DNA of 64,000 nucleotides from Octopus vulgaris (GCA_951406725.2 OX597823.1:50840001-50904000), one strand, 5' to 3'. Positions 743 to 57,497 are shown, counted from the stretch's first letter. The notes: a model not told the origin generated them from the letters alone. Numbers and translations: made by a program.

Positions 743-930
743 TCTCTCTTTTACTTGTTTCAGTCATTTGACTGTGGCCATACTGGAGCACCGCCTTTAG
801 TCGAACGAATCGACTACAGGACTTATTCTTTGTAAGCCTAGTACTTATTCTATCGGTCTCTTTTGCCGAACCGCTAAGTTACGTGGATGTGAACACACCA
901 GCATCAGTTGTCAAGCGATGTTGGATGGAC
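743..930 (-). mobile_element. SINE family A, 3' half (tail)
   Basis: Reverse complement reads ...GGCGGTGCTCCAGTATGGCCACAGTCAAATGACTGAAACAAGTAAAAGAG, the tail repeated at 2403, 9400, 15790, 16335, 39160, 54045 and 62720. Confidence 0.85.
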
Positions 931-952
931 AAACAGAGACACACAAACATAG

Positions 953-984
<32 letters not shown>

Positions 985-2402: not shown

Positions 2403-2812
2403 ACTCTTTACTCTTTTTACTCTTTTACTTCTTTCAGTCATTTGACTGCGGCCATGCTGGAGCACCGCCTTTAGTCGACCAAATCGACCCCAGAACTTAT
2501 TCTTTGTAAGCCTAGTACTTATTCTATCGGTCGCTTTTGCCGAACCGCTAAGTTACGGGGACGTAAACACGCCGGCATCGGCGACAAACACAGACACACG
2601 AACACACACACATACATATATATACATATATACGGCGGGCTTCTTTCAGTTTCCGTCTGAAAGAAGCTTTGTTCAGTTTCCATCTGAAAGAAGGCTTTGG
2701 TCGGCCCGAGGCTATAGTAGAAGAAACTTGCCCAAGGTGCCACGCAGTAGGACTGAACCCGGAACCATGTGGTTGGTAAGCAAGCAACTTACCACACAGC
2801 TACTCCTCCGCC
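2403..2812 (-). mobile_element. Full-length SINE family A (head + internal microsatellite + tail)
   Basis: Complete head, internal (CA)/(TA) tract and tail ending in (GAGTAAAA)-like repeats; TA-rich flanks. Confidence 0.9.
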
Positions 2813-4231
2813 TATATACACCTATATATATATAAATTTACAATATATAAATATTATTCTTAAACAAGAACATTATCGAAGACTTTGAAGTTTTGGCCAG
2901 CAAAGCCATCATCAGCCTGCTTAGCTGTTCGAACCTTCGAAGTTACTGTCAATAGTATCCTTGTTTGTGAATAATAAATTTGTACACTACAAGTTAATAG
3001 AATAATCCACCAGATTAACGTAAACTTATCATTATAACTGAACATAAAAATATTAATATATACATACATGTGTGCGTGTGCGCATGTGTGTACACATATA
3101 TATGTATATACATGCATACATATTGACGCATCAATATAAGTGTCTAAATATGTTTGCGTGAAGAAATCTAACAGAAAATGGAAGTTAATTTCGTTCGTTT
3201 AGGAAAAGCAAGCGAAGAAGGAGCTGAATGCGAGTGACTTTAATAGACTACAAGCAACATAAGAGGTGCGCTACCGCTGTGTTCGTAATCAATAATTTGG
3301 AATCATCAAAACTTGGGGCGACAATTTTGTGTCCGGATAAACCTGAAAAACATTAACATAATGGATCGAATGCACACTTGTGTTTGTGCCTCGAAGACTT
3401 TTACCGCGTGTAATAAATACGCCTGGTTGCACAGTAAGTGTAGTGAGTTTGTTGCCTTTCATATCAGCTGCGATATATATTTGGTGAAAGTATTTTTGGC
3501 ACTGAATCCCTCGACAATTTTTTTTTCCTATTTAGATAATAGAACTAACTTAAAGCCTCTTATATCTACGTACTCTTTTTACTCTTACGACGATTCTTTC
3601 TTCAGTCCGTTTTCCATTTTCATACGCTTTCTTCCTTGCTTTCCTTTTTGTATGATCAAATAAAATCAATCTATAAGTTGCTAGTGCAAAAGAATTGAAT
3701 TAACGTTCGCTTCACTGATTACCATATATACGAAAGAAACGTCTTGTATTTTACACGATACCTACGAAGAAAGGAATATAACAAGATTACAGTTTATTTT
3801 ATTTTATTTTTAACGGCTGAATCATAATCAAATTACTGGCTGAGTTATTTCCCTTAGTTACCTGGCTGGATTTATATGACTGTTGGCAAGATATACTACA
3901 TCAATAAAAATATATAGGCTCTATAATTAAATAGGATAAGTAAATATTTATCTTTGTACTAGTACGATAAGCTGACACTTGATTTTTTCTTAACGCACTA
4001 GGCCTCAGGAGTGTTCTTGAAGATTATAATGGGATTGTAGGAATTTCAAATGGTTATTCTCACCACAGAAACATTTACAACACGAGTGAAACAAAATGGC
4101 TCCAAAGTTTTATGAATTTGGATTGGCGTTTATTTGGTGTTAACGATTATAAATTATATTTGTCTTGCATTTGTTTTACAAAATTACTGGCCTTCATCCT
4201 AAATCAGAAGTCATTATCTTTTATCACTGTA

Positions 4232-4645
4232 AGGCCACAAGCTGGCAGAATCGTTTGCACGCCGGACAAAATGCTCAGCGGCATTTCTTCTGGTTTTGAC
4301 GTTCGGAGTTCAAATTCCACCGATGTCTACTATGTCTTTCATTCTTTCGGTTTCGATAAAATAAATATTAGTTGACCAATAAAGTCGAGGTAATTGACAT
4401 CTCCCTATCCTTAAAAACTACAAGTCTCGTTCCAATAACATCGGGAGGAAATATATTTTAATGTTCTCGCATGTTAAACATCCTATTATTATAGGGAAGT
4501 TTGAAGGATTGTTAGCACACTGGACGAAATACCTAGCGCCGTTTCGGGGTCAGTGCAATAAATACCTGTTGAGTATTGGGGTTGATGAAATCAACCAGCC
4601 TCCCCAAACTTTCAAACTTGTGCCTATAGTAGAAAAGATTATTGT
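4232..4645 (+). mobile_element. Two degraded SINE family B copies
   Basis: GCTGGCAGAATCGTTTGCACGCCGG head, GAGTTCAAATTCC B-box, core TTTCATTCTTTCGGTTTCGATAAA, tail CTTGTGCCTATAGTAGAAAAGATTATT. Confidence 0.7.
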
Positions 4646-4989: not shown

Positions 4990-7410
4990 ACTGAAAACCC
5001 CAGGAACCTGTTGCTGGGTTTTCTATTGCCTTTTTCCCCCTTAAGAGAAAAATTTCGGCCCTCCAGAAAATCGCTCGAGAAGCGTTTTGAAAACAGCAAT
5101 TTATAAAGATGGTGGCGTCCACTTTAAAACTTGTAAAAAGAAAATCAGTTCTTCCTCACGGCCTTCTTACTGCTGAAAACTTCTCTCTTCTTCCCTCTCT
5201 TACCAAAAATAATGCAGAAGACGAGGAGAAGACAAAAGGAATGGAAACGGGCAATATCCTAATCTATTTCTTTACTACCCACAAGGGGCTAAACACAGAG
5301 AGGACACACAAGGACAGACAAACGGATTAAGTCGATTATATCGACCCCAGTGCGTAACTGGTACTTATTTAATCGATCCCGAAAGGATGAAAGGCAAAGT
5401 CGACCTCGGCGGAATTTGATAATATCCTAATCTGTCAAGAGAAAGAAGAGGTGAACAGTGGAAAAAATATTTACGGCAACAATAACAGCAGTAACAAAAA
5501 TAGTGGTAGTGGAAGTGACATAGCAATGGTGATAGGGGAAGTAGAGATAGCAAGAATTGCGAGGTTTTGAAGTATAGCAGTAGTAACGACAGCTTCAGCA
5601 GTAACAGTGACAACAACTCAGACGGCGGCAGTAGGAGAGAAGTTAGCAGTGGTGGCAGAGTAGTTGGAGGCAAGCAGTGGTGGTGGTGATGGTAGCAATA
5701 GTGCAAGTGGCTACAACCACACCACCACCACCACCACCACCAGTAGTAGTAGTAAGGTTTCTTTTACCGGCGCCACCGCCTCAAAACAACTCTTTGCACT
5801 CTCTCTAGAGGAAAAAGCCTCTAAATTAGCGAACACCGCCAAGTTCCGAAAAATAGACGGTAGAAGAGAGGAATTAATACCATTACAAGAAATTTTAGCG
5901 AACACAGCAAGGAAAAATAGTAACGTACCATTGTATTAGCCGTATAACAAAACGGCTAGAAACAGAAATGACCGCCAAGATAGAAAGATCTCTTCAGAAT
6001 ATATGGCAGGACATCGGTCATATATCGAGAGCAAAGCAGTTCGGGGGTGGGGGGCCTAGAAGTTCTATTTAAAACTGAGGCCCTGGTTATTCAGCAATCG
6101 GTGGCCGCCTGCTGCAGCGAAGAATTCGTGCTCTTCCCTACACATATGGGAAGATAGGCAGTTAAGATTACCTTACAAGGGGTGCCACCAGAGCTAGAGC
6201 TGTGATGGATACTCGCGTGTGGGGTAATCAACGATAGTGATAATCTCCTGGAGGTGAAGAGATCAAGGAGGGAGAACTGGATAGGATTCGCACTAAAGGT
6301 GTTACTCCATGTAAAACCAGACCAGCTGGAGAAGATCCCTGATTTCATCTCCTTGCCGAACGGAACTGAGTTGAGAGTAATTGTGGAAGGCAAAAATTCG
6401 AGATGCCATGTTTGTGGCATGACAAATCATTTATATGCGGTCTGCCCACAAAACAAAAGAGGAGACGTGGGGCATCCTGCGTGATCTAGAATGCGGAAGG
6501 TTCGTGTCGGCATATGCGGACGACGTCACCGAAATAGTGTCAGTCAGCTCGGAAATCGAGGTAATCGGCACTAACATTGCTGGGTGCTGGATGGAAGGAC
6601 CAGTTAAATTGCTCGGGGCTTGATTTAGTTCAGACTTCCAGGTGGACAAGAACTGGGACGAAGTGACGAGCAAAGTAGCGAGTCTCACCCAGAAATGAGC
6701 AGAGAGGAAGCTGTCCCTGAAAGGTTGAACGAAGGTGGCGAATGCGTACATCACTTCCGTCATCTACTACCGTCTAACCGTCGTCCCTTGCCTTGCTTTG
6801 TGGCTGATCAAGCTGGTGCGCTTGTTCTTCCGCTTTCTGTGGAAGGGATGTGTTCCGCTCGTCGGACGATCCATCTGCTGTCGATAGCCACTGAGTGGGA
6901 ATGTCATGGCTAATGATGCGCAGACGCGCTAGGCTGCGGTATCTCTAGTGCTTTGTTAACGGTGAGCAGGTGTGGTCGCCGTTTGTAACACAGGATTTTT
7001 CGTAGCTCGTCTCAGTCCTAGGTCATAAGTAGACCAAGAAAGGGCGCTTGGCACCTGGAGTGTCAGCAAGTGCTCACAGCTTTCTGCCAGTCGGGCAATG
7101 CGATCAATCGAAGTTCCACTATGGAGTTCTAGACAGGTTTAGTAGAGGGAAAGAGCGACACGTACTCGAGGTAAACTCTGGGTGTCGGGAGGGATCAACT
7201 AACTGATCATTTCCGGAGGACTTTCGGGCCAGTGCTTATGGATAACTTCGAGCAATCTCTGGCCTTGTAGAGCAACCAAGGAGCTCTGCCGGTTCGAGAC
7301 AAGCTTTACAGACACGGAAGTGCTGTCAAACGGACCCGTCCGAAGTTTGCGCAGGGCGACGAAATCGTCCTGCATGCAAAATCGTTGGCCTTGTGCCAAA
7401 ATAAGCAACC
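4990..7410 (+). mobile_element. Degraded, internally deleted L1/Tx1-clade LINE
   Basis: ORF1-like remnant with CCHC knuckle CHVCGMTNHLYAVC (~6405-6446), followed almost directly by RT motif SAYADDVT (~6506-6530) and C-terminal ALPVRDKLYRHG (~7282); many stops and frameshifts; boundaries approximate. Confidence 0.75.
5266..5420 (-). mobile_element. 5'-truncated SINE family B (tail 1) with 13-bp TSD
   Basis: Flanked by a perfect direct repeat AATATCCTAATCT (5253-5265 and 5421-5433); body nearly identical to the 15162 and 58432 copies. Confidence 0.9.
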
Positions 7411-9397: not shown

Positions 9398-9918
9398 TTT
9401 TATCTTTTACTTGATCAAGTCATTAGACTGTGGCTATGCTGGGGCACCGCCTTCAGCAATTTTTAGTCAAATGAGACGACACCAGTACTCATTCCACCGA
9501 TATCTTTTGTCGAACCGCTAAGTTAAAGAATCGTAAACACACTAACAGAGGTTATAAAGCGGTGGCGAGGAAAAGAGAGACACAGGCACATACAGATATA
9601 TATTAATATAACGGGCTTCTTTCAGTTTCCATTTACCAAAGCCATTCTCAAGAATTTGGTCTACCCGAGGCAACAGTAGAAGATACTTACTCGAGATGTC
9701 ACCTAATGAGATTGAACCCGAAACCATGTGGTTGGGAAGCAAGCTTCTTACCACATTATACATATAAGACGGGCTTCTTTCAGTTTCTGTCTAGGAAATC
9801 CACTTTGGTCAGCCCGTGACTATAGTAGACAGTTGTTCAAGGTGCCACGCAGTGGGACTGAACCCAGAACTATGTGGTTGGGAAGCAAGCTTCTTACCAC
9901 ACAGTTACTCCTGCGCCA
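9398..9918 (-). mobile_element. SINE family A full copy (9398-9753) plus a second head (9768-9918)
   Basis: Same head and tail sequences as 2403-2812, more diverged. Confidence 0.8.
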
Positions 9919-12039: not shown

Positions 12040-12598
12040 AACATGTCGACTAAAATCTTTCAAGGCGGTGCCCCAGCATGGCCGTAGTCTAATGACTAAA
12101 ATGAAAAATAGGAGAAAAGATATATATTTGCGTGCGCACGTGCATGTGCGTGTGTGTACGACGGGCCTTCAGTTTCTGTCAAGCAATTCCACTCCCAAGG
12201 ATTTAGTGGATCCAAGGGTATAGTAAAAGTCATTTGCCCAAGGTGTCACGCAATGAGACTGAACCCGGAATCATGTAGTTTGAAAGCAAACTTCTTACCA
12301 CTAAAACTCTTGAGGCTGCCTTAGCATAGTCGCAGTCCAATGACTGAATCAAGTAAAAGATAAAAAAAGAGGCGTGTGTATGTGTGTGGCGGACGTCTTT
12401 CAGTTTCCGTTTATCAAGTCTACTTACAAAGATTAGGTAAGCCCGAGTGTATAGCAGAAGCCACTTGTCCATGGTGCTATGCAGTGGGACTGAACCCACA
12501 ACCGTATATTTTGAAAGCAAACATCTTACCATTAAACCCCTTGAAGCTTCTTCAGCATAGCCACAGTCCACTGACAGAAACACGTAAGCGATAAAAGA
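12040..12598. mobile_element. Cluster of alternating SINE A tails (+) and heads (-)
   Basis: Tail+ ~12040-12120, head- ~12158-12300, tail+ ~12300-12365, head- ~12388-12530, tail+ ~12530-12598. Confidence 0.7.
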
Positions 12599-25516: not shown

Positions 25517-28469
25517 GATTGATTGATTGATTGATTGATTCTAGTTTCAGCTTATGAGCTGTGGCCATGCTGGGGCACCGCCATTTTGTGTTGCCACTTG
25601 GTTTCACTTCATGGAGGCTTTCTAGCAGCTGCTATTTGGTGCATGAGAGAGTTCGATGCAGCTGCCCTCATCTGCCCCTCCTGCCGTGAAGTTGGTTCAT
25701 CTGGGACACCTGACAGGAAGAGATCCAGCTTCATTTTAAAGACATCTGTATCCACCCCATGCAGGTCTCTCAGGTTCTTCGGGAGGATATTGAAGAGCTG
25801 TGGGCCTCGGAAGCCCAGGCTATCACAGTATCTTGTCCTACATCTTGATGGCAGGTTTGGAGTCCTAGGCACCACGCAGTGGCGCCCAGTTCTGGCATTT
25901 GCGTAACTCTCGATGCCAAAGTTCAGGACACTTCCCTCCAGGATCTTCCAGATGTATATTATGGCATATCTTTCCCGCCTACGCTCCAGGGAATATAATT
26001 TTAATCTCTTGAGTCTTTCCCAGTAGCTTACATTCTGCATAGAGGCTATCTTCTTTGTGTAGCTTCGTTGGATCGCCTCAAGTTCTGTGATCAACTTGAC
26101 ACTGGATGGTGACCATAGCTGAGAGCAATAGTCAAAGTGGCTTAGGACAAGTGTCTTCCAGAGGACCATCATGGTTTCTTGTTCTCTTGTTCTAAAGGTT
26201 CTAAGAATCCATCCAGCCAGCCGTCTACATTTCATTGTCAGTTTAGCAACATGTACATGAAAGGTCGCGTCATCACTCATGTGAATACCCAGGTCACGCA
26301 CTGATTGTGCCTCTGGGATTGCAATCCCTCCGGGTCCAGTGTATTCATTGGGTATTGCATTCAGTTTTGCATGCTGATAGTATAAAGCTTGAAACTTTCC
26401 AGCATTGAACTGCATGCTATTCTTTTCAGCCCACTTGTATATTTCGTCCAGCTCACATTGCAGGTGTTTAGTGTCCTCAGGGTTCTGTATTGCCTGTGAA
26501 ACTTTTGTATCATCTGCATAACTTGTGATCGTGGCTCTCTGCGTGGCTGAGGGCATGTCTGAGAGGGCCATTATGAACAGTAGTGGTCCCAGAACAGTGC
26601 CCTGCGGAACACCGCTCACTATTTGTGTGTTAATGGAGGTGGCCCCATTGGCTACTACCACCTGACTTCTATCCTTCAGAAAGTCATGAAGCCATTCTCC
26701 CAGTTTTCCAACTATGTTGAGATCACGCAGTTTGTGACATATCATTCCATGATCGACTTTATCAAAGGCCTTTGCAAAGTCGAGATATATCACTTCCACA
26801 TTTGAGTGGTTGAGCAGCCGTTTCAGCACTCAGTCATAGTGTTGTAGGAGCTGAGTTAAACAGCTTCTCCCTGGTCGGAAACCATGTTGGGTGTCGGGCA
26901 GCAAGTCATTCTCTTCAAGGAAGGTGATCAGCTTCCTTCTGACTATTCGTTCCATGACCTTGCTGATGTGTGAGGTCAGAGAGATAGGTCTATAGTTCTT
27001 GGCTTCCGCTCTGCTACCTCCTTTATGAATGGGGCATATTTTACCTTCCTTCAGTTTTCCTGGAAGTTTGCCAGCTGCAATGAAGCTCTGAAAGAGGAAC
27101 TGCAGTGGTCTTGCTAGGACTCTCTTACATGCTTTTAGGAGGATTGCCGGGAATCCATCGGGGCCAGTAGCTGAGTCTGTTTTCATTTCATCTATAGCCT
27201 TGGTTACATCGTCTTCCTTTATATCGATGTAATCTATCGTCGCCGCCTCTGATTTTATATCTGCAGTGGTAAAAAAGTCAGTTGGATTGGTGATTTGGAG
27301 ATGCCCAAGGGGTGGAGTGAAAACACTCTTGAATTGCTCATTCAGTATTTCACTTACCCTCATTGGTTTTCCTGTAAGTGTGCCATCCTTTTCAAGGAGT
27401 GGCCCTATTCTACAGTGCACTGTAGCTGTTTCTTTGGCATACCTGTAGAAAGCTCTGGGGTTAGATTTTATGTTTTCTATAGCCCAGGCTTCTTTGTCTG
27501 CTCTTTCTTTTTCATGGGAGAGTTGCAGACATTTTTCGATTTCCAACAGTTTTATTTTTAGGCGGGACTTTTCACTGCTTTCAATCTGTTTGTTTAGGCG
27601 ATTTGAAAATTTCGTACGCCGTCTCATTAAAATTTTCCTCTCTCTGGGGATTTTGTTCTTGTGTACAGTGGCCTTTCTCTCTGGGACACATTTGTAGCAT
27701 ATGGCTTGCATTACAGACATGAATTGTTGAAGTTTCACGTCGATGTCTGGCGAGGAGAGACATTCAGGCCAGTTTTGTTTGAGGATCTCTTTCTCAATTT
27801 GTTTCCAGTTTGCCTTATGGTAGTTCAAGCTGGAAAGATTTTGAGGGTTTCTTGTAGGCTGCATGTCCGTGCTCTCTTTTGGCCCGTACATGGTCAGCTC
27901 TATCATGTTGTGATCCGAGAGTAGTGTCGGTGTCACTTTCACATTATGGATGAGATCCATGTCATTTGTGAAGCAGAGATCCAGTGTGTTACCTGCCCTG
28001 GTTGGTTGGAGTATTACCTGCTCCATGTACAGGGTGTTGATGAGGTTCAGGAGGGACCTCGCCTGTCCTCGTTCACATCTTGTCATTCCTGGGAGAGAAA
28101 GGCCCTCGGGCCATCTGACATTCGGCAGATTGAAGTCTCCCATAAGAAGCACACCTATGTGTTGTTCTAATGTGGTTAGAATTTCTTCTATTTTTATAAG
28201 GCAGTCTTCGAACTTGCCCACATGGCTTGGGACATCTGGAGGGCGATATGTAGCACACACAACTACATCAAGTTGCCTAATATGTACAATTAGTGTGTCA
28301 CACACCGAGTTTGAGTATGACAAGAGGACCTGGGGTGTGAGGTCCTCACGGATGTACATAGCAACACCTCCATGACTCCTTTCTTTCCTGTCGGTCCGTA
28401 GTACAGCATACTGTGGTATGTGTAACTCCGCATCTGCTATGTCCGGTTTCAGGTGCGTTTCTGTAAGTA
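25517..28469 (-). mobile_element. 5'-truncated CR1-clade LINE with (AATC)6 tail, inserted in (TA)n
   Basis: Long EN+RT frame, short 3' UTR, (GATT)6 at 25517-25540 on the + strand, TA tracts on both sides. Confidence 0.95.
25609..28467 (-). pseudogene. LINE ORF2 (APE endonuclease + reverse transcriptase) with one in-frame TGA at 26830-26832
   Basis: One frame: LTETHL...GGVAMYI, YRPP, MGDFN, NTLDL, SDH (EN); NYRPISLTS, QHGFRPGRSCLTQLL, YLDFAKAFDKV, GVPQGTVLGPLLF, YADD, RDLGI, SLERRR (RT and C-terminus). The two track ORFs join in frame across CAC TAT GAC TGA GTG. Confidence 0.95.
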
Positions 28470-28490
28470 TATATATATATTTCTGTAAGT

Positions 28491-28549
<59 letters not shown>

Positions 28550-28946: not shown

Positions 28947-29024
<78 letters not shown>

Positions 29025-29094
29025 ATGTGTGTATAAAATTTAAGAAAGAAAAGGCACACACTTTACATAGTTTTAATATATTTTATATTGTGTT

Positions 29095-29127
29095 TGTCGA
29101 CTGGTTTCACTTTCGCCAATTATGACA
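29095..29127 (-). ncRNA. Degenerate minimal type-I hammerhead-like motif (pLTR copy 1)
   Basis: TGTC-ATAATTG-GC GAAA GT-GAAA-CCAG-TC-GACA; stem I pairs perfectly. Confidence 0.55.
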
Positions 29128-30072
29128 TTGAAATTTATTTAAATATGTATTTTCTTAAGAAAAAAATTGTGTCTATGTTGTGTGTTAAGTTTATGAGTAA
29201 ATGATTCAATAGAAAAATCTAATGGGAGGTAATTGGTGATCCCTATTATTGTGGACAGGAGCGATAAGTGTTCATGTTTCAGAAAATTCAAAAACTAGTT
29301 GGGAGAAATATGTACAATGATGGGTATGTAATCGTGAATTAAAATATGTATAGAGGTCAAAGTTGGTTATGCGTGCATATGTAGACGTGTTCTGTATTTT
29401 CCGATGAATAAATTTACTTTATTTAAACGTTCTTGTATCTTTGCACTGGTAGAAGGGGAAAACTGTGAAATTTGGTTTGATGTTACCTGCACATCTCTCT
29501 ATCTGTTTACTTAAGAGAATCTGTCTGTATTACGGGAATCGGATCTGCTCTTTATGTAGAGTGGCTCTTCATCTCAATGTCATACTCATCTGTCTTATAT
29601 AGTGATATCCACAGCCCGAGCAGGTTATTACATAAGTTAGATTCTCAGAGGTACGAGTGAAGTTGGTTTTAATTGTGAACCTCTCTTCTTGTTTAAAAAG
29701 AAAATCCGTACCTTCAAGTCGGTTGGACCACGTTCCACAGTTAGCGCGTCCACATGTTTTAACCGTTTCCGTGGTTGTTGCGTAAAGCCTCGCATTTGTT
29801 AGAAGATTCTTTAGCGATTTGCGTTGCTTTTTGCATTTGATGAATTTATGTACGATTACATACCCATCACTGTATATATTTCTCCTCACTACTCTAGTTT
29901 TAGAATTTTTGCGTATATATAATTCCTCCCGACCCAATGATGAACAATTATCTTCCCAGTTCAGAATAATAACGATCACCAATAGTCTCCCCTTATATTT
30001 TACTATTTCACACACAAGCTGGACAAGAAAAAATTTTTTTCTTAAGAAAATACGTATTTAAATAAATTTTAA

Positions 30073-30105
30073 TGTTATGATTAGGGAAAGCAAAACCGGT
30101 CGACA
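30073..30105 (+). ncRNA. Degenerate minimal type-I hammerhead-like motif (pLTR copy 2)
   Basis: TGTT-ATGATTA-GG GAAA GC-AAAA-CCGG-TC-GACA; palindromic stem III ACCGGT and GUC site. Confidence 0.55.
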
Positions 30106-30267
30106 AACACAATATAAAATATAATCAAAAATGTACATATTCCTTCTATAATTTTATATATATATACATATTGCAACTCACCACGTGGGGATAATCGAAC
30201 TTCCTCTCTTTCGTTGATGTTTGATGTTTTGCATTCTTGTCCCATTTTGTATTTTATATATATATAA

Positions 30268-53941: not shown

Positions 53942-53959
53942 TCCAAATATATATTATAT

Positions 53960-54049
53960 ATAGGCGCAGGAGTGGGTATAGGCGCAGTAGTGGCCATAGG
54001 CGCAGGAGTGGCTATAGGCGAAGGAGTAGCAATAGGCACATGAGTGGCT
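53960..54049 (+). repeat. Five tandem 18-bp copies of the SINE A 5' end
   Basis: ATAGGCGCAGGAGTGGCT units; the last one continues into the SINE. Confidence 0.9.
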
Positions 54050-54178
54050 GTGTGGTAAGTAGCTTGCTTACCAGCCCCATGGTTCCGGGTTCAGTCCCAC
54101 TGCGTGGCATCTTGGGCAAGTGTCTTCTACTATCGCCTCGTCTACTATTTGGTAGACGGAAACTGAAAAAAGCCCGTC

Positions 54179-54216
<38 letters not shown>

Positions 54217-54445
54217 GCATGTGTGTGTGTATGTTTGTGCGTTTGTGTTTGTGCGCCCCCCCCACATCACTTGACAACCGATGCTGGTGTGTTGACGTCT
54301 CCGTAACATAGCGGTTCGACAAAAGAAACCAATAGAATAAGTACTAAGCTTATAAAGAATAAGTTCTGGAGTCGATTTGCTCGACTAAAGGTGGTGCTCC
54401 AGCATGGCTGCAGCCAAGTGACTGAAACAAATAAAAGAATAAAAA
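54032..54445 (+). mobile_element. SINE family A, full length
   Basis: Head, internal (TA)/(TG) tract and tail. Confidence 0.9.
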
Positions 54446-56237: not shown

Positions 56238-56486
56238 CGAAAAATAAAGTTACCTTCTCGAGTCATACTGACACATGAGGGCCAGTTTCACGGCGTATAT
56301 ATTCCCCACCTGGACGGGACGCCGGTCCATTGCAGGATTACTCATTTTTGCCAGCTGAGTGGACTGGAGCAACGTGAAATGAAGTGATTTGCTCAAGAAC
56401 ACAAGGCATCGCTCGGTCCAGGAATCGAAACTGCAATCTTACGATCTTAAGTCCAACACCCTAACCACGAAGCTAAGCGCCTACAC
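56238..56486 (-). mobile_element. SINE family C with tail X
   Basis: TSD TAGT(G/A)GAGTGA at 56227-56237 and 56487-56497. Confidence 0.85.
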
Positions 56487-57497
56487 TAGTAGAGTGAAAG
56501 ATTTAAAAGGAGTTGTATATAAAAGTCACCTAGGGTAATGACTTTAGAGTGAAGTGCACTGTTCTCAATGAGTAAAGAGTAGAACAGTTTGTATTAGAGA
56601 TATGTTCAAAAAGCCATAGAGGCCGCTGATGTATTTCAATGATCGTCCTAGAACAACAGTAACTGGGAGACTATTGCTGACTTCCAGGTTAGAAAAGTAC
56701 GTTGCGAGAAGAGTAATGGTATCTGCAAATACTGAAGCATCAGCCTTCAGGAAGAAATGGGATTATAGTGTAACCATGAACAAGAGATGGATTAAATGTA
56801 GAGGATGAGAAGTTTGTATCTGAGAAAGAAATATATAAAACATAGGTTTACAGTTTTATCGTATATATTGAAAAAGCAGATTAAAAGACACTTGTGAGGG
56901 CAAAATGGCGGAGGAAGAGGGCGGACGTATGATAGACGCAAACTAATATTATCGAATTAATCTTTAGGACGGTGAGCCTTTGAGTGTTGAAAAAAAGGCT
57001 TAAAGGTATTTCTTCCAAACATTGCTGTCATTCTCTCTAGATCGATAAAATATAACAGTCAAGTATTGGAATCGCTCTCTCTCTCTCTACCGATCTATCT
57101 CTCTGTCTATTTATCTATGTGTATATGTATATATGTACGTATATATACATATGCACATATGCATGTATCATATATGTATATCATTAATTAATTTTATTTC
57201 AAGATTTTCTTGCCATAGAGAAAGTTCCTGTTTCTAACACAGATCCAAGGCCCTTCATTGGAATTTCAACATTTTCAGGGTATTTTTGTGTGTATATATT
57301 TATATATGCAGATTTCTATGCGTTGTTTTCTGCATGCATTCTGATGCATATACCTGCATGCCTAAGCATGTTCATATATACTTAAATGATAAACTTCTAG
57401 AAAGTTTTACACATTTTTGTATGTATATATGTATGTATGTGTGTGTTTGTATGTATGTATGTGTGTGCTTATATGTATGTATGTGTGTGTGTGTGTA

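Follow-up and report, generated by a model that had tools for sequence, protein, structure and literature searches.

The eel pair UnaL2/UnaSINE, reportedly described by Kajikawa and Okada in 2002, is among the systems closest to the one considered here, and tRNA-derived SINEs of octopus are said to have been described by Ohshima and Okada in 1994. In zebrafish L2, according to the accessible part of the report, the hairpin loop decides specificity and the stem structure is general (PMC4176376). In molluscs, bivalve SINEs and the LINE CR1-14_CGi of Crassostrea gigas share a 3′ tail with compensatory stems, and OR1 and OR2 are counted among the CORE-SINEs, both in the accessible text of the same two studies (PMC4824008, PMC4758252). 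Common 3′ tails have been documented for 58 SINEs, with no mollusc listed and no partner LINE for an octopus SINE given in Table 1, as far as the available part of that compilation goes (PMC3747384). An octopus SINE-LINE pair of this kind was not found in the accessible portions of the literature searched, including PMC9115989 (no mention of CR1) and PMC3531059; Ohshima and Okada 1994 and 2005, Repbase or SINEBase may already hold one.

We have analysed a 64,000-nt stretch of Octopus vulgaris DNA (GCA_951406725.2, OX597823.1:50840001-50904000; the window), in which a LINE and an abundant SINE, here called SINE A, end in a common tail. The SINE A/LINE tail pair is a fresh example of a well-established parasitism. 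The last 92 bases of this LINE form the 3′ tail typical of its young family, F1, with a two-hairpin predicted fold; from sequence comparison, we favour on balance the reading that SINE A would borrow the enzyme of a sister lineage, F8/F9, rather than that of F1.

The LINE copy in the window

The features of the window are collected in Table 1. The host site of the F1 copy is a (TA)n microsatellite, and at the 5′ junction (28462-28500) a short motif is duplicated inside the (TA)n run. Read on the minus strand, the LINE ends as the first-pass annotation of this DNA had claimed, with a 20-nt block (25582-25563), a spacer (25562), CAGCT-CATA-AGCTG (25561-25548), AAACTAG and (AATC)6 (25540-25517). 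The shared block begins 27 nt past the end of ORF2, which is interrupted by a single in-frame stop (26830-26832).

Table 1. Positions of the LINE, SINE and junction features in the window
Feature	Position	Strand
5′-truncated LINE copy, family F1 (young)	25517..28461	-
ORF2 remnant of 950 codons, with endonuclease and reverse transcriptase	25609..28461	-
Hairpin 1 (predicted): 7 pairs, 1x1 G-G mismatch, YCCA loop	25563..25582	-
Hairpin 2 (predicted): 5 pairs, family-specific 4-nt loop	25548..25561	-
F1 terminal repeat, AAACTAG + (AATC)6	25517..25547	-
(AT)n run, 3′ junction of F1 LINE	25495..25516	.
(TA)n run, 5′ junction of F1 LINE	28468..28549	.
SINE A copy; two-hairpin tail 2469-2435 followed by AAAAGAGT-type repeats; outer bounds approximate	2404..2833	-
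SINE A copy, 3′ part; block from 795; ends approximate	745..980	-
SINE A, full-length: A/B-box-like head, internal microsatellite, tail from 54390; ends approximate	54021..54445	+
Older SINE subfamily copy, tail (TAGTC..GACTA)	12064..12098	+
Older SINE subfamily copy, tail	19826..19860	+
Decayed SINE tail	16638..16672	+
Older SINE subfamily copy, tail	9417..9451	-
SINE tail	15819..15853	-

F1-type LINEs encode an N-terminal endonuclease and a reverse transcriptase in ORF2 (Pfam PF14529, PF03372 and PF00078), end in a short-repeat tail and show 5′ truncation. The motifs of the F1 ORF2 are presumably of the CR1 group. Its closest named protein among the homologues listed comes from the octopod Argonauta hians (64% identity), and no named CR1 or L2 reference occurs among the 120 homologues listed or the 12 solved structures retrieved. 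The ORF1 products of F1 (261 aa; L423:2283-3068) and F8 (311 aa; L412:2169-3104) both resemble Myb/SANT domains at the N-terminus and carry a CCCH finger, each below the Pfam cut-offs; the term 'CCCH' was not found in the search listing for an ORF1 survey (PMC4120745).

By extrapolation, F1 tails are in the order of 2,000 genome-wide. Exact F1 and F8 tails together number 2,712, and the first 100 listed comprise 78 F1-type and 22 F8 tails, a ratio of about 3.5:1. Young F1 and F8 ends are dense on C1 (G000) at about 69-74 Mb, which holds 30 of these first 100.

SINE A and its copies

The shared tail motif has 8 matches in the window at no more than 3 mismatches, against a mean of 0.00 in 100 shuffles. 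It is present at the SINE A copies listed by the first-pass annotation, but the single end sequence quoted there is a composite, since the copies differ in detail: the copy at 2432 ends in AAAGAAG, that at 16640 has a decayed 5′ block and the loop TAAT, that at 19826, of an older subfamily, reads CAGTT..GATTG with the loop TAAT, and in that at 54390 a C-A mismatch interrupts the stem. The variant TAGTC..GACTA cited near 12085 is also present, but it is a single decayed copy and makes weak evidence of covariation, for which we have discarded it; double changes of this type occur in 2 of 159 SINE-type hairpins, with 0.2 expected from the single changes.

The young SINE A subfamily has 5,320 exact 77-mer matches in the genome. 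A/B-box-like motifs are visible by eye in the SINE A head, and neither ARAGORN nor Rfam gave a tRNA match; no Rfam match in the window reached the gathering score, and the SINE copy gave sub-gathering, microsatellite-driven matches only. SINE A may be one of the octopus elements OR1 and OR2. No OR1/OR2 sequence and no octopus tail motif was found in the searchable supplements (figures apart) of the two bivalve studies, which are accessible in part (PMC4824008, PMC4758252).

Several other arrangements were seen around these elements. Ahead of the full-length copy, the first 18 nt of the SINE are repeated in five tandem copies (53959-54049). At least two further abundant SINE-like families lack the tail (4228-4398, 5264-5419, 15161-15380, 19037-19255, 56245-56487 and others). 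A diverged inverted pair (29022-29335 and 29852-30168, 69%) flanks a decayed coding-like stretch with no Pfam match (29569-30057), and is perhaps the remnant of an old DNA transposon or Penelope element. Elsewhere in the genome, two groups of loci (L346, L353, L358 and L368; L349, L355, L365, L397, L399 and L400) form small SINE A lineages with common diagnostics and G-rich loops, and in one of them an internal deletion is shared; they suggest that source copies, edited or otherwise variant, have been amplified. In L360, L073, L168 and L170 the tail is fused either with part of another SINE, its head or its body, or with a SINE A of reduced length, and these chimeras possibly arose by template switching.

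The tail is the LINE's own

All 30 F1 loci examined carry the block, the hairpin and the (AATC)n end, in a search whose query included the tail; it gave 40 scored matches (from 743 candidates) that were 99-100% identical. Nine further F1-type ends were found, two of them picked by the tail pattern; the block is intact in six of the other seven and has an internal deletion in the seventh. More LINE families were then recovered by pattern searches excluding the hairpins of the window LINE and of the SINE, together with a 600-kb spot sample, and the C-terminal parts of their ORF2 are roughly 55-80% identical to that of the window LINE. When queries ended before the tail, the matches nevertheless ran into it at 29/30 F7 loci, 30/30 F8 loci (two with block deletions), 24/25 F9 loci and, judged strictly, 22/30 F6 loci, with hairpin 2 kept in seven of the remaining eight. 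A common tail directly after ORF2 is thus present in at least six related LINE families (F1, F2, F6, F7, F8 and F9), and a 35-nt two-hairpin core is common to SINE A and all the families.

The first-pass annotation had named, as one finding that would overturn it, LINE copies lacking this 3′ segment, which would then be an adjacent SINE piece. Such an artefact, a SINE end adjoining the LINE or a chance likeness, gains some plausibility from the density of SINE tails: of the 60 tails in the 600-kb spot sample, 48 were SINE, 3 LINE and 9 other, and exact SINE 30-mer tails number 95,842 genome-wide, with at least that many near-intact tails. Against it, the distance of the tail from ORF2 is fixed at about 140 loci, which belong to five families and show variants specific to each, and shuffled sequence gave 0 matches. 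The 30/30 F1 loci and the tail-free searches of the sister families show that the tail belongs to the LINE; the latter rule out an adjacent SINE, and we regard any such artefact as next to impossible. The shared 3′ end is the LINE's own and is clade-wide, not private to F1.

Some LINE insertions, namely L281 (2896-2952), L248 (2782-2838), L361, L362, L354 and L356, are so strongly truncated that hardly anything but the repeat and the two hairpins is left, and hairpin 1 may often be the last part to be reverse-transcribed before synthesis ends.

Two predicted hairpins and their covariation

The single hairpin of the first-pass annotation gives way to a predicted structure of two tandem hairpins, in which the 20-nt 'flank' is itself hairpin 1. 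The minimum-energy fold has two hairpins in 7/8 LINE and SINE stretches folded (the eighth had wrong bounds), with z of -1.6 to -3.4. Hairpin 1 is nearly invariant across all families and the SINE; its pair 3 varies, being C-G in 30/30 F1, U.G in 8/8 F2 and U-A in 22/24 F9 loci. In hairpin 2 the outer three pairs hardly vary among the families and the SINE, pairs 4 and 5 show two-sided changes between families, and the loop differs from family to family (Table 2) and even among F1 subfamilies (CATA, CGTG, CATG and CATT).

Table 2. Tail states of the LINE families and of SINE A, with downstream (TA)n runs (background 9.4%) and best-match divergence, the latter from the top 30-40 matches and so biased to young copies
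Family	Hairpin-2 stem	Hairpin-2 loop	Terminal repeat	Differences to young SINE A over 51 tail positions	Loci with a run of at least (TA)4 in the 70 nt downstream	Best-match divergence
F1	CT/AG	CATA	(AATC)n	17	27/30	0.0-0.3%
F2	CC/GG	TTCG		14		
F4/5 (further LINE family)			AAAAGA-type			
F6	TC/GA	CTTG		12	14/27	median 10.7%
F7	TC/GA	ATTG	AAAAGA-type	8	11/29	2.9-7.5%
F8	CC/GG	GGAT	AAAAGA-type	6	28/30	0.0-0.3%
F9	CC/GG	GCAT	AAAAGA-type	9	16/24	3.1-10%
Young SINE A	TC/GA	AAAT	(AAAAGAGT)n		8/30	

In an alignment of 12 hand-picked family representatives, 143/144 pairing cells are filled by pairs. The covariation score is 0.222 against 0.123 in shuffles (0/500 shuffles reach 0.222) and above that of all slid controls, for rows that we chose to lie near each family majority and a shuffle that ignores kinship. 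Two-sided change occurs at 3/12 pairs (hairpin-1 pair 3, hairpin-2 pairs 4 and 5); nine pairs show no double change and seven never vary. The compensatory changes proposed earlier between LINE and SINE are therefore borne out at the family level, with three pairs changing on both sides, and a conserved 3′ stem-loop with compensatory change, as expected of a stringent LINE, is found here in a predicted fold. On the ORF2 tree, pairs 4 and 5 each require three changes, with family states assigned by us. F6 and F7 share U-A at pair 4, yet an AU test, chosen after the first ORF2 tree had been inspected, rejects a single clade made up of the two (p 8.6e-6 with 34 DNA rows and 8.5e-41 with 25 protein rows). 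Since these two families with the SINE's exact stem do not form one clade, the covariation has more than one origin.

A LINE subfamily with the exact SINE hairpin had been called for by the first-pass annotation, and this search succeeded in part: F6 and F7 carry the exact stem, but their loops differ. The pattern searches and the 600-kb sample gave no LINE family whose loop is AAAT, as in the SINE, and none was seen in the 50 of 112 LINE-anchored matches or the 30 of 1,364 stem matches inspected. A purine at stem position 4 gave 21 matches, mostly decayed SINE copies, and was dropped as the mark of a family.

Relation of the SINE tail to the LINE families

As listed in Table 2, the family tails differ widely in their distance from the young SINE A, with identities of 45/51 for F8 and 34/51 for F1 at the two ends of the series. 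Over the terminal 16 positions, F8 has 0 differences to the SINE and F1 has 8, and the (AATC)n of F1 is not the same unit as the SINE repeat, which is present in 30/30 F8 loci. Among the families compared, the SINE's loop end (--AT) and its AAACRAGT-AAAAGAGT end are common to F8 and F9 only. F8 departs from the SINE at pair 4 of the stem, at two bases of the loop, in the spacer and at a base of the hairpin-1 loop; F6 and F7 fit the SINE stem better than F8 does.

The ORF2 protein tree places F8, F9, F4/5 and F7, all with AAAAGA-type repeats, on one side and F1, F2 and F6 on the other. Support is moderate (89/89 and 88/76), that for the split of F8/F9/F4/5/F7 being only 89/89, and a grouping of F8 with F9 was neither recovered nor rejected (p 0.42).

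Of 30 young SINE loci, 26 were measurable outside the 77-mer, and 19/26 of these diverge by less than 2.9%, one at 0/261. The activity periods of F8 and F1 thus overlap with that of the young SINE in these best-match samples, which leave out older F8 copies. The frame covering ORF2 is open in 5/9 long F8 loci scored and in 4/10 F1 loci. The terminal repeat of SINE copies itself varies with their distance from the young subfamily, copies with AAAAGAT lying at a distance of 22.5%, those with AAAAGAAT at 12.6% and those with AAAAGAG at 8.1% (n=6, 6 and 24; 12 unclassed; p 0.0013).

Two further candidates were considered and rejected. F7 agrees with the SINE in the whole stem and in the hairpin-1 loop base, yet its best copies are older than 19/26 young SINE copies, and it was not retained as the sole partner; the match at the hairpin-1 base is probably convergent, because old SINE subfamilies have C there. 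SINE copies bearing the GGAT loop of F8 were not accepted as proof of exchange with F8 either: there are 54 SINE-type matches with this loop, other A-to-G loops serving as controls are nearly as common (30, 18 and 15), and A-to-G changes cluster.

Insertion sites

Runs of (TA)4 or longer lie within 70 nt downstream of nearly all F8 and F1 loci (Table 2), and the young F1 and F8 families are likely to have a preference for microsatellite (TA)n targets; no literature on (TA)n targeting by CR1 was found in our search. Such runs are rarer at the young SINE than at F8 (p 1.4e-7), are above background (8/30 against 9.4%, p 0.005) and are not clearly fewer than at the older F6 and F7 taken together (25/56, p 0.11). 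AT precedes 17/20 intact SINE 5′ ends. At one zero-divergence SINE copy (L331:1200-1660), an apparent target duplication, judged by eye, overlaps the terminal repeat, which is consistent with priming by pairing of tail and target.

Clustered A-to-G changes in SINE copies

In the SINE loop, triple changes from AAA to GGG occur 15 times (3 of them in the first 100 matches listed), against about 0.1 expected from single rates near 1%. Outside the loop, these 15 copies have 45 A-to-G and 11 T-to-C changes, the controls having 21 and 40 (p 8e-7). In the five richest copies (L402, L404, L407, L408 and L409), the A-to-G changes are clustered on the sense strand, mostly in the 3′ half, and the changed A follows a G in 0/38 cases against 62/227 for unchanged A. 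The pattern fits A-to-I edited SINE RNA that was copied back into DNA. ADAR-like edits are described for L1-made pseudogene insertions in the accessible part of one study (PMC11702581), and no genomic edited SINE copies were directly found in the literature searched.

Discussion

F8, with the older F9, appears to be the likeliest mobiliser of SINE A, a reading that we hold with moderate confidence because F8 is identical to the SINE in its terminal repeat, is young and has copies with an open ORF2. Against it stand the SINE loop and stem pair 4, which are unlike those of F8, the far rarer use of (TA)n by the SINE, and F1, which is commoner and equally young. The first-pass annotation had proposed that F1 or a close relative mobilises SINE A; the comparison of tails points to the relative only, since among the six families it is F1 whose tail least resembles that of the SINE.

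The SINE could instead be a generalist, any ORF2 of the clade, that of F1 included, reading hairpin 1 plus any intact hairpin 2, with the active families mobilising it. This possibility, which we consider rather doubtful, draws on the near invariance of hairpin 1 and of the outer three hairpin-2 pairs throughout, on a hairpin-2 loop that varies within F1 itself, on a SINE tail that is a mosaic of family states and on the swappable stems of zebrafish L2, as given in the accessible text (PMC4176376); it sits poorly with a terminal 16 nt that is identical to F8 and shared with F1 at only 8/16 positions, and with the 0 matches genome-wide for a LINE combining the SINE hairpin with the (AATC)n end of F1. 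That F1 is the main mobiliser, as the title of the first-pass annotation implied, seems very improbable: the family is young, some of its ORF2 copies are open and no other young family seen is as numerous, but its tail is the least similar, its terminal repeat is another one, pairs 4 and 5 differ and it lies on the opposite side of the tree. An improbable alternative is a young low-copy family with the SINE's own loop that escaped the searches, or F7 or F6 as tail donor with a later change of partner. F8 was met by luck in the 600-kb sample and F7 was missed by one anchored pattern, so the family inventory is incomplete; the exact stem in F6 and F7 and the weak association of the SINE with (TA)n, which the F8 reading leaves unexplained, lean the same way, whereas the lack of AAAT-loop LINEs among the matches inspected and the age of the best F7 copies relative to most young SINE copies lean the other.

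By analogy with eel and zebrafish L2, ORF2 would bind the folded tail via the linker between endonuclease and reverse transcriptase, and reverse transcription would start within the terminal repeat, primed at an AT-rich nick. We propose that hairpin 1 may serve as a clade-wide handle and the hairpin-2 loop with the terminal repeat as a family tag. A bolder extension, which we put forward tentatively and think unlikely as it stands, is a two-part RNA address, in which an invariant hairpin 1 could be gripped by any ORF2 while loop and repeat are rewritten in each family, the SINE re-matching its repeat to successive active families. If this were true, a host-tracking series could be read in one genome, and F1 and F8 would be two live, differently tagged enzymes.

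The finding points to a likely source of the enzyme that copies one of the commonest repeats of this genome, and corrects the family involved. The question of specificity in stringent LINEs has so far rested mainly on fish L2; at least six sister families, among which stems, loops and repeats have been exchanged naturally and of which two are young and have open ORF2, form a panel for studying how such LINEs discriminate between self, cousin and parasite.

Comparison with known systems

SINE A resembles the octopus SINEs that Ohshima and Okada reportedly described in 1994 in being abundant and in having an A/B-box-like head, and is presumably one of them. Like ZfL2-1 and ZfL2-2, as presented in the accessible part of PMC4176376, and like UnaL2/UnaSINE, the octopus elements combine a presumably stringent type of LINE with a short structured 3′ tail and a terminal microsatellite repeat. 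In the fish systems the role of the tail, with one stem-loop each, was shown by experiment, whereas the octopus tail is predicted from its sequence to have two tandem hairpins, one invariant and one variable. The closest parallel in molluscs is that of BivaV-SINE2 and BivaCORE-SINE1 with CR1-14_CGi, where tRNA-type SINEs and a CR1 LINE have a 3′ tail in common; in the accessible text (PMC4824008, PMC4758252), its conserved stem-loops likewise show compensatory changes and the partnership is likewise taken from sequence. Unlike the bivalve pair as described there, the octopus tail has been traced across at least six sister families in one genome, together with their tree, ages and terminal repeats.
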